In this document: positions 1-215 of the stretch, in pieces
Numbering within the stretch: the stretch's first letter is position 1
How the letters are laid out: the number at the start of each line of letters is the position of its first letter
Origin: a virus
Taxonomy: Duplodnaviria > Heunggongvirae > Uroviricota > Caudoviricetes
Length of the DNA: 7,363 bases
Virus record (IMG/VR): IMGVR_UViG_2529292836_000012
Coordinates: 1 to 7,363 of that record
Reading direction: 5' to 3' (one strand)
Program-made: the position numbers and the translations under genes
Notes under the pieces: model-generated
What the model was told of the DNA's origin: nothing
Database searches by the model: none
What the model saw: the letters and a program-made list of their open reading frames with translations, nothing else

Positions 1-149
1 GGCCACGAAAGGCCAGCTCTCCGAAAGCGCACGAACATACTACAAACTGTTGATTTTGGTACACCCAGGCGACGCCCGGCCACAACCCGGGGTAAATGTT
101 CTTCAAAGTGAAGACGTAAAGCTTCAGTGATCCAGGTCCGGTGTTTCAT
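1..149 (-). CDS. transposase N-terminal fragment (IS21-family IstA-like HTH); ORF continues beyond window start
   Basis: Minus-strand ATG at 149-147 opens a frame that stays open to position 1: MKHRTWITEALRLHFEEHLPRVVAGRRLGVPKSTVCSMFVRFRRAGLSW. The HTH-like pattern and the RRAGLSW motif recall IstA transposases. It is absent from the ORF track because it is cut by the window edge. Family assignment is from memory and unverified. Confidence 0.55.
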   Translation of the reverse strand, partial: MKHRTWITEALRLHFEEHLPRVVAGRRLGVPKSTVCSMFVRFRRAGLSW

Positions 150-215
150 ACGATAGTGTCCATTAAAAATGATGGACATTATTTTTGTAGAGCCGGAGGA
201 AACAGACCAGACGGT
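150..215 (-). mobile_element. putative insertion-sequence left end / junction with prophage (boundary not resolved)
   Basis: A 66-bp gap lies between the terminase stop (216) and the transposase-like start (149). It contains an inverted repeat TGTCCAT-8 bp-ATGGACA at 157-178. No head gene follows the terminase where lambda-like phages have W and the portal gene. The exact IS terminus cannot be placed without a reference. Confidence 0.35.

Follow-up and report, generated by a model that had tools for sequence, protein, structure and literature searches.

Elements of the IS66 family generate an 8-bp target-site duplication, and their ends are imperfectly matched inverted repeats, some 20-30 bp long, with 5'-GTAA as the first bases; the insertion sequence (IS) dealt with here has both features. 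The original description of ISCro1 is from Citrobacter rodentium ICC168, in which it is the most expanded IS, at 24 copies (PMC3072379), and an ISCro1 copy of 2,824 bp is present in E. coli EC958 (PMC8764528). The phages cdtI (AB285204), mEp213 (Aguilavirus) and Fels-1 are relatives of the prophage into which the element has gone and share its gene order, terS-terL-W-like-portal-protease/capsid, with the large terminase (TerL) of cdtI being 99.9% identical over residues 1-677. In those phage records terL is uninterrupted, specifies about 700 amino acids ending in ...SGGWL/V and has its stop codon overlapped by the W-like gene, whereas the prophage terL is split by the IS. [quoted passage not shown]

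The window, meaning the whole stretch of 7,363 nucleotides analyzed, has the described features on its minus strand (Table 1) and starts within the IS. Its best public match, E. coli NCCP 13717, differs from it at 8 of the 7363 positions (1179, 4531, 4576, 5236, 5293, 6522-6523 and 7333), so that the window comes from a close relative and not from that record itself, and everything beyond window position 1 has been read from two near-identical public genomes with the same junction. The homologue of the small terminase gene is annotated as such in phages cdtI and mEp213. Further upstream, at 5620-5869 of the same strand, is a cluster of three tRNA genes, Arg(TCT), Arg(TCG) and one with a CAT anticodon that is Met according to ARAGORN and Ile according to RefSeq, flanked by a DNA methyltransferase gene (5919-6968) and holin genes. 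The cluster resembles the ileZ-argN-argO arrangement of Stx-type lambdoid phages; the toxin genes are absent here.

Table 1. Coordinates of the features discussed (window positions unless a locus is named)
Feature	Position	Strand	Basis or remark
IS66-family IS, left-end 232 bp of a 2699-bp ISCro1-like element	1..232	-	Rest beyond window position 1; full element is L001 11069-13767
Left terminal inverted repeat (IRL), GTAACCGGCTCATTTAAACCGTCTGG	207..232	-	Imperfect pairing (18/26) with right end GTAAGCGACTCGTCAGAACCGTATTG in L001
Target-site duplication, left copy, 8 bp, TGTTAAAA	233..240	-	Single-copy in empty site, doubled in L001 and L049
tnpA 5' part, IS66-like accessory protein, 225 aa when complete	1..179	-	NF038385; annotated WP_001339397.1
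Internal inverted repeat/hairpin overlapping the ATG-179 start	153..182		Repeat finding; also in minimum-free-energy fold of leader
gpA-type large terminase ORF, truncated, 682 aa	216..2264	-	Pfam GpA_ATPase and GpA_nuclease
Small subunit of terminase (DUF1441), directly upstream of terL	2273..2800	-	RefSeq annotation at L001 8501-9028
Other prophage lesions	L001 2755-3121; L048 4641-4884; L047 7108-10680		Annotation

When window positions 1-2300 were compared by megablast with 5426 complete E. coli genomes, full-length matches were found in two, while about 1880 genomes match only as far as window position 233. A probe spanning the junction is continuous in the same number, namely in E. coli NCCP 13717 and the enterotoxigenic (ETEC) isolate E1779, and in both of these the order is truncated terL (2049 nt), tnpA, tnpB, IS66 transposase gene and an 84-nt terL remnant, followed by the W-like gene (213 nt, DUF6148), the portal gene, a ClpP-like protease/major capsid fusion and tail genes. 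In the uninterrupted allele of strain 602354 the site reads ...tatccacgcc TGTTAAAA aacaaaaacgg..., with TGTTAAAA in single copy (L002 8061-8068). The occupied site reads ...tatccacgcc TGTTAAAA GTAACCGGCTCATTTAAACCGTCTGG ... CAATACGGTTCTGACGAGTCGCTTAC TGTTAAAA aacaaaaacgg..., the IS extending from GTAACCGGCTCATTTAAACCGTCTGG to CAATACGGTTCTGACGAGTCGCTTAC, and TGTTAAAA is present at both of its ends (11061-11068 and 13768-13775 in L001, and likewise in L049). Comparison of the empty with the occupied site thus gives an element length of 2699 bp and an exact 8-bp target-site duplication; the terminal repeats start with GTAA and match at 18 of 26 positions. The boundary between IS and phage, 232/233, is upstream of the terminase TAA stop at 218-216, so the last five terminase codons and the stop are IS-derived. 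From these comparisons there is very little doubt that an IS66-family element interrupts terL at codon 678, with a packaging defect as its likely outcome. The event was very probably insertion of an ISCro1-like IS66 element into the gpA-type terL of a phage-cdtI-like lambdoid prophage with duplication of the target TGTTAAAA, and past window position 1 one would expect tnpA-tnpB-tnpC, the right end ...GAGTCGCTTAC, the second TGTTAAAA, and then AACAAAAACGG..., the W-like gene and the portal gene. RefSeq annotation already has the insertion, with the terminase split and the genes of the IS marked, and the feature is of a known kind.

The insertion point is at codon 678 of the 699 of the large terminase gene. 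Residues 1-677 are native, and the frame enters the IS by 17 nt, where SNRLI and a stop (233-216) are specified almost entirely by IS sequence, with the result that the protein is now 682 amino acids long instead of the 699 of the intact allele (strain 602354, phage cdtI). After the shared ...STPVK, the intact protein continues to its end with KQKRKKTVTDDVNPWLTSGGWL and the interrupted one with SNRLI. Both domains of a gpA-type terminase are present, GpA_ATPase (PF05876, E 5e-81, residues 40-303) and GpA_nuclease (PF20454, E 2e-86, residues 325-643), but the intact C-terminal tail is not: 22 residues are lost from the end, the conserved NPW..SGGWL among them. The intact 699-residue TerL shares 99.9% identity with its phage cdtI homologue and 79% with the one in mEp213. 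Among cdtI, mEp213 and Fels-1 the proline-rich linker varies, but all three retain T-D/E-x-x-NP(W)...SGGW(L/V) at the end, which argues that this motif is under constraint. Identity to lambda gpA is 24% and the C-terminal tails cannot be aligned; neither the lambda gpA tail nor those of Casjensviridae TerLs gave an alignment with the tail of the cdtI/mEp213/Fels-1 clade. The tails of gpA-type TerLs are clade-specific after a variable linker, with NPW..SGGWL in cdtI, mEp213 and Fels-1, an acidic stretch plus LAxAL(A/G) in Casjensviridae and LADYARALSGEDE in lambda, a distribution that, as a pattern in sequences, is consistent with co-evolution with the portal.

If the lost tail is a portal-docking element, the terminase, with ATPase and nuclease domains retained and its 22-residue tail exchanged for SNRLI, would fail to dock on proheads and no DNA would be packaged. 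It is the loss of prohead binding in lambda Aam42 that leads to the prediction that the truncated TerL is unable to dock on the portal, and for this clade we infer the portal-binding role of the tail from that analogy together with conservation in the three relatives. On this analogy the prophage is probably packaging-defective, and the TerL truncation is the leading candidate for its functional lesion. The prophage is between potB and potC and has an integrase, an excisionase and lysis, head and tail modules; a Q-family antiterminator ORF in it is just 270 nt. The IS is in the orientation of the late operon. Polarity on the late genes may be limited, since the 84-nt terL remnant still carries the W-like gene's own GGAGGA ribosome-binding site, and the downstream head and tail genes, displaced by 2.7 kb, are otherwise annotated as intact except for the tail fibre gene. 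The W-like DUF6148 protein has no similarity to lambda W in a BLASTP comparison, and its presumed role in head-tail joining comes from its position and from the annotations of mEp213, Phobos and Utah.

The insertion could also be genuine but harmless, if the truncated TerL were functional or a Q-antiterminated late transcript read through the IS, and the prophage would then be inducible and infectious. The intact GpA_ATPase and GpA_nuclease domains, the ribosome-binding site retained by the W-like gene and the annotated integrity of the assembly genes other than that for the tail fibre all speak for it. Against it are the conservation of the lost tail motif across cdtI, mEp213 and Fels-1, the abolition of prohead binding in lambda by removal of as few as 5 C-terminal residues (PMC4856287), and further lesions annotated by PGAP elsewhere in the prophage, namely frameshifts in rusA and in a cro/CI-family gene and loss of the N-terminus from the tail fibre protein. 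A harmless insertion is unlikely, albeit to be kept in mind, and interruption of terL with a probable loss of packaging is preferred. A preliminary description of the window, made from its letters, had suggested an IS in the head-gene region, a possible effect on the terminase C-terminus and a defective prophage. The first of these stood, with an empty-site allele, the 8-bp duplication and imperfect terminal repeats behind it, apart from the family to which the IS was assigned. The second was correct, 22 residues having given way to five with a stop from the IS, as comparison with intact 699-residue homologues ending in the NPW..SGGWL tail makes clear, and the W-like, portal and head genes do resume beyond the IS in the two complete genomes with this junction. 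That the prophage is defective is plausible from the lambda analogy and the annotated pseudogenes.

In the preliminary description the ORF after the terminase was taken to be that of an IstA-like transposase, which would make the element a member of the IS21 family, with the hairpin as its terminal repeat. There is indeed an HTH-like ORF after the terminase stop, reading MKHRTWITEALRLHFEEHLPRVVAGRRLGVPKSTVCSMFVRFRRAGLSW from an ATG at 149-147, ending ...RRAGLSW and open at window position 1, and the HTH-like pattern in its N-terminal stretch, RRLGVPKSTVCSMFVRF, is what the IS21 reading has in its favor. However, neither the ORF nor full-length TnpA matched an IS21 model at E <= 0.01 in NCBIfam or Pfam. 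The 59-residue fragment encoded in the window matches the NCBIfam model NF038385 IS66_access_TnpA with an E value of 9.2e-18 and full-length TnpA matches it with 1.1e-88, the other NCBIfam matches being weak ones to IS2/IS3 HTH models; a Pfam search with the 59-residue fragment gave no match, the NCBIfam IS66 TnpA model alone recognizing it. Downstream there are IS66 tnpB and a DDE transposase gene and no istB. The 'transposase-like gene' is therefore tnpA, the first IS66 accessory gene, and not a DDE transposase gene. Nor is the hairpin an end of the element: the inverted repeat noticed earlier exists, but it is internal, 50-79 bp inside, and is no terminal repeat, since the true ends are the GTAA... 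repeats at window position 232 and L001 13767 with the 8-bp duplication. The IS21 alternative is accordingly given hardly any weight, and the IS66 assignment is retained. Although ATG 149 is the 67th base past the terminase stop, just as the preliminary description had counted, the '67-bp gap' is wholly IS sequence and not intergenic.

RefSeq places the start of tnpA at an in-frame ATG, 179-177, which is 10 codons upstream of ATG 149, and as the alignment to the NCBIfam TnpA profile starts at residue 13 of the longer form, both are possible starts. The inverted repeat has arms of 11 nt (153-163 and 172-182) that are 91% complementary, with an 8-nt loop and a core, TGTCCAT-N8-ATGGACA, that overlaps ATG 179, and folding of the 103-nt leader is modestly better than that of shuffled sequences (z = -2.0). 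A promoter scan of window positions 1-420 found no sigma-70-like site, and terminator-like matches there were within noise.

The share of the IS genes that is in the window is the first 59 tnpA codons, and the remainder was read from L001 and L049, which have the same junction. In both junction genomes tnpA is 678 nt, tnpB 348 nt and the transposase gene 1572 nt, and the three are consecutive, as tnpA-tnpB-tnpC of IS66 elements are. The tnpA stop overlaps the tnpB start, another IS66 feature suited to translational coupling, the two genes (11122-11799 and 11799-12146 in L001) having a 1-nt overlap. TnpB matches NF033819 (E 5e-38) and the DDE transposase NF033517 (E 1e-143) in NCBIfam; the latter has Pfam DDE_Tnp_IS66 (E 4e-103), and TnpB_IS66, zf-IS66, LZ_Tnp_IS66 and DDE_Tnp_IS66_C are the other Pfam domains in the IS proteins. 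In RefSeq the DDE protein carries the name 'IS66-like element ISCro1 family transposase'. As judged from its sequence, the element is an intact-looking, ISCro1-like member of the IS66 family.

Window positions 1-215 match multi-copy IS66-like elements of E. coli chromosomes and plasmids with 100% identity. Matches occur at 5296 places in 1724 genomes, as many as 17 in one genome, and they all carry the annotation 'IS66-like element accessory protein TnpA'. The 2699-bp unit recurs at other sites with 99% identity, six other copies each having an 8-bp duplication of their own, and one locus, L033, is a stand-alone repeat contig of 2699 bp in a public assembly that, at 99% identity, begins with the left terminal repeat and finishes with the right end seen here. 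So many copies of such identity at different sites, each with its own duplication, suggest that the element is mobile. In the draft genome of Escherichia sp. MOD1-EC7003 (NZ_PTRE01) some 30 contig ends stop at the left end of the IS and a repeat contig has a roughly 30-fold excess of coverage (cov 3285 versus about 110), which looks like a large expansion to about 30 copies. This enterobacterial IS is also present in two metagenome-assembled genomes of unrelated taxa, 'Segatella copri' (L013) and 'Clostridiales bacterium' (L033, the contig of exactly 2699 bp), for which mis-binning or contamination is a most likely explanation in preference to transfer.

Copies of an IS often break or mis-join assemblies, and the junction could in principle be an artefact or chimera. 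The identical junction, however, is in two independent complete genomes, one from Korea and one from the ETEC reference collection, and in both the 8-bp duplication is perfect at the two IS ends and the phage genes on either side are collinear, so that an artefact is very improbable. That the ORF instead belongs to the phage itself, as a moron or an HTH-type regulator, a reading for which its position between terL and W is all that can be said, is next to inconceivable when 1877 of the 1879 genomes with this terL have no insert and a W-like gene overlapping the terL stop, and the 215-bp segment recurs 5296 times among 1724 genomes, in plasmids as well as chromosomes.

The flanks of other copies bear on where such elements insert. 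In 35 unbiased left flanks (L008-L042) there is a C at -10 in 24 (p ~1e-7), together with G/C at -8, T at -6 (20/35), A at -4 and -3 and C at -1; the bias is that of left flanks, and so the count does not extend to symmetry. The site in the window (233-242), gCCTGTTAAAA, fits this bias. Independent ISCro1-like insertions are in other prophage genes, xis in strain IrN, terS in MFDS1016424 and portal in 24AR0142, and in BEN2908 terL is hit near its 5' end by a decayed IS of 2681 bp; all of these (L003, L005, L006 and L007) are in the orientation of the gene hit. The five prophage loci were picked for flank similarity, so they support no claim of enrichment, and the excess of prophage genes and of the shared orientation may come from the sampling. 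It is a doubtful proposition that ISCro1-like elements have a target preference of asymmetric form, with C two bases outside the duplication and S-N-T-N-A-W-N-C within it, and that this, combined with selection, repeatedly knocks out prophage packaging and excision genes (terS, terL twice, portal and xis). If true, it would be an IS-driven route for locking E. coli lambdoid prophages in place.

For annotation, the 'terminase' called in the window has lost its C-terminus and is fused to IS sequence, and the gene after it is an IS66 accessory gene. This is useful for calls of prophage completeness, the prophage at potB/potC probably being a packaging-dead remnant, and the junction, present in 2 of 5426 complete E. 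coli genomes, can serve as a marker for a lineage related to ETEC.

With ISCro1 the element of the window shares the tnpA-tnpB-tnpC layout, the 8-bp duplication and the GTAA... terminal repeats. The ISCro1 copy of EC958 is 2,824 bp in contrast to the 2,699 bp here, and the two may be isoforms or may have been delimited differently; it is on account of this mismatch that 'ISCro1-like' is the label adopted. The terminase has its counterpart in lambda Aam42 (Sippy & Feiss 1992, as described in PMC4856287): both have a C-terminal truncation of a gpA-type protein with its domains kept, and prohead binding, lost in Aam42, would by analogy be lost here. The two differ in that lambda gpA is 24% identical and its tail unrelated, and in that the truncation in the prophage is of 22 amino acids and is caused by an IS.
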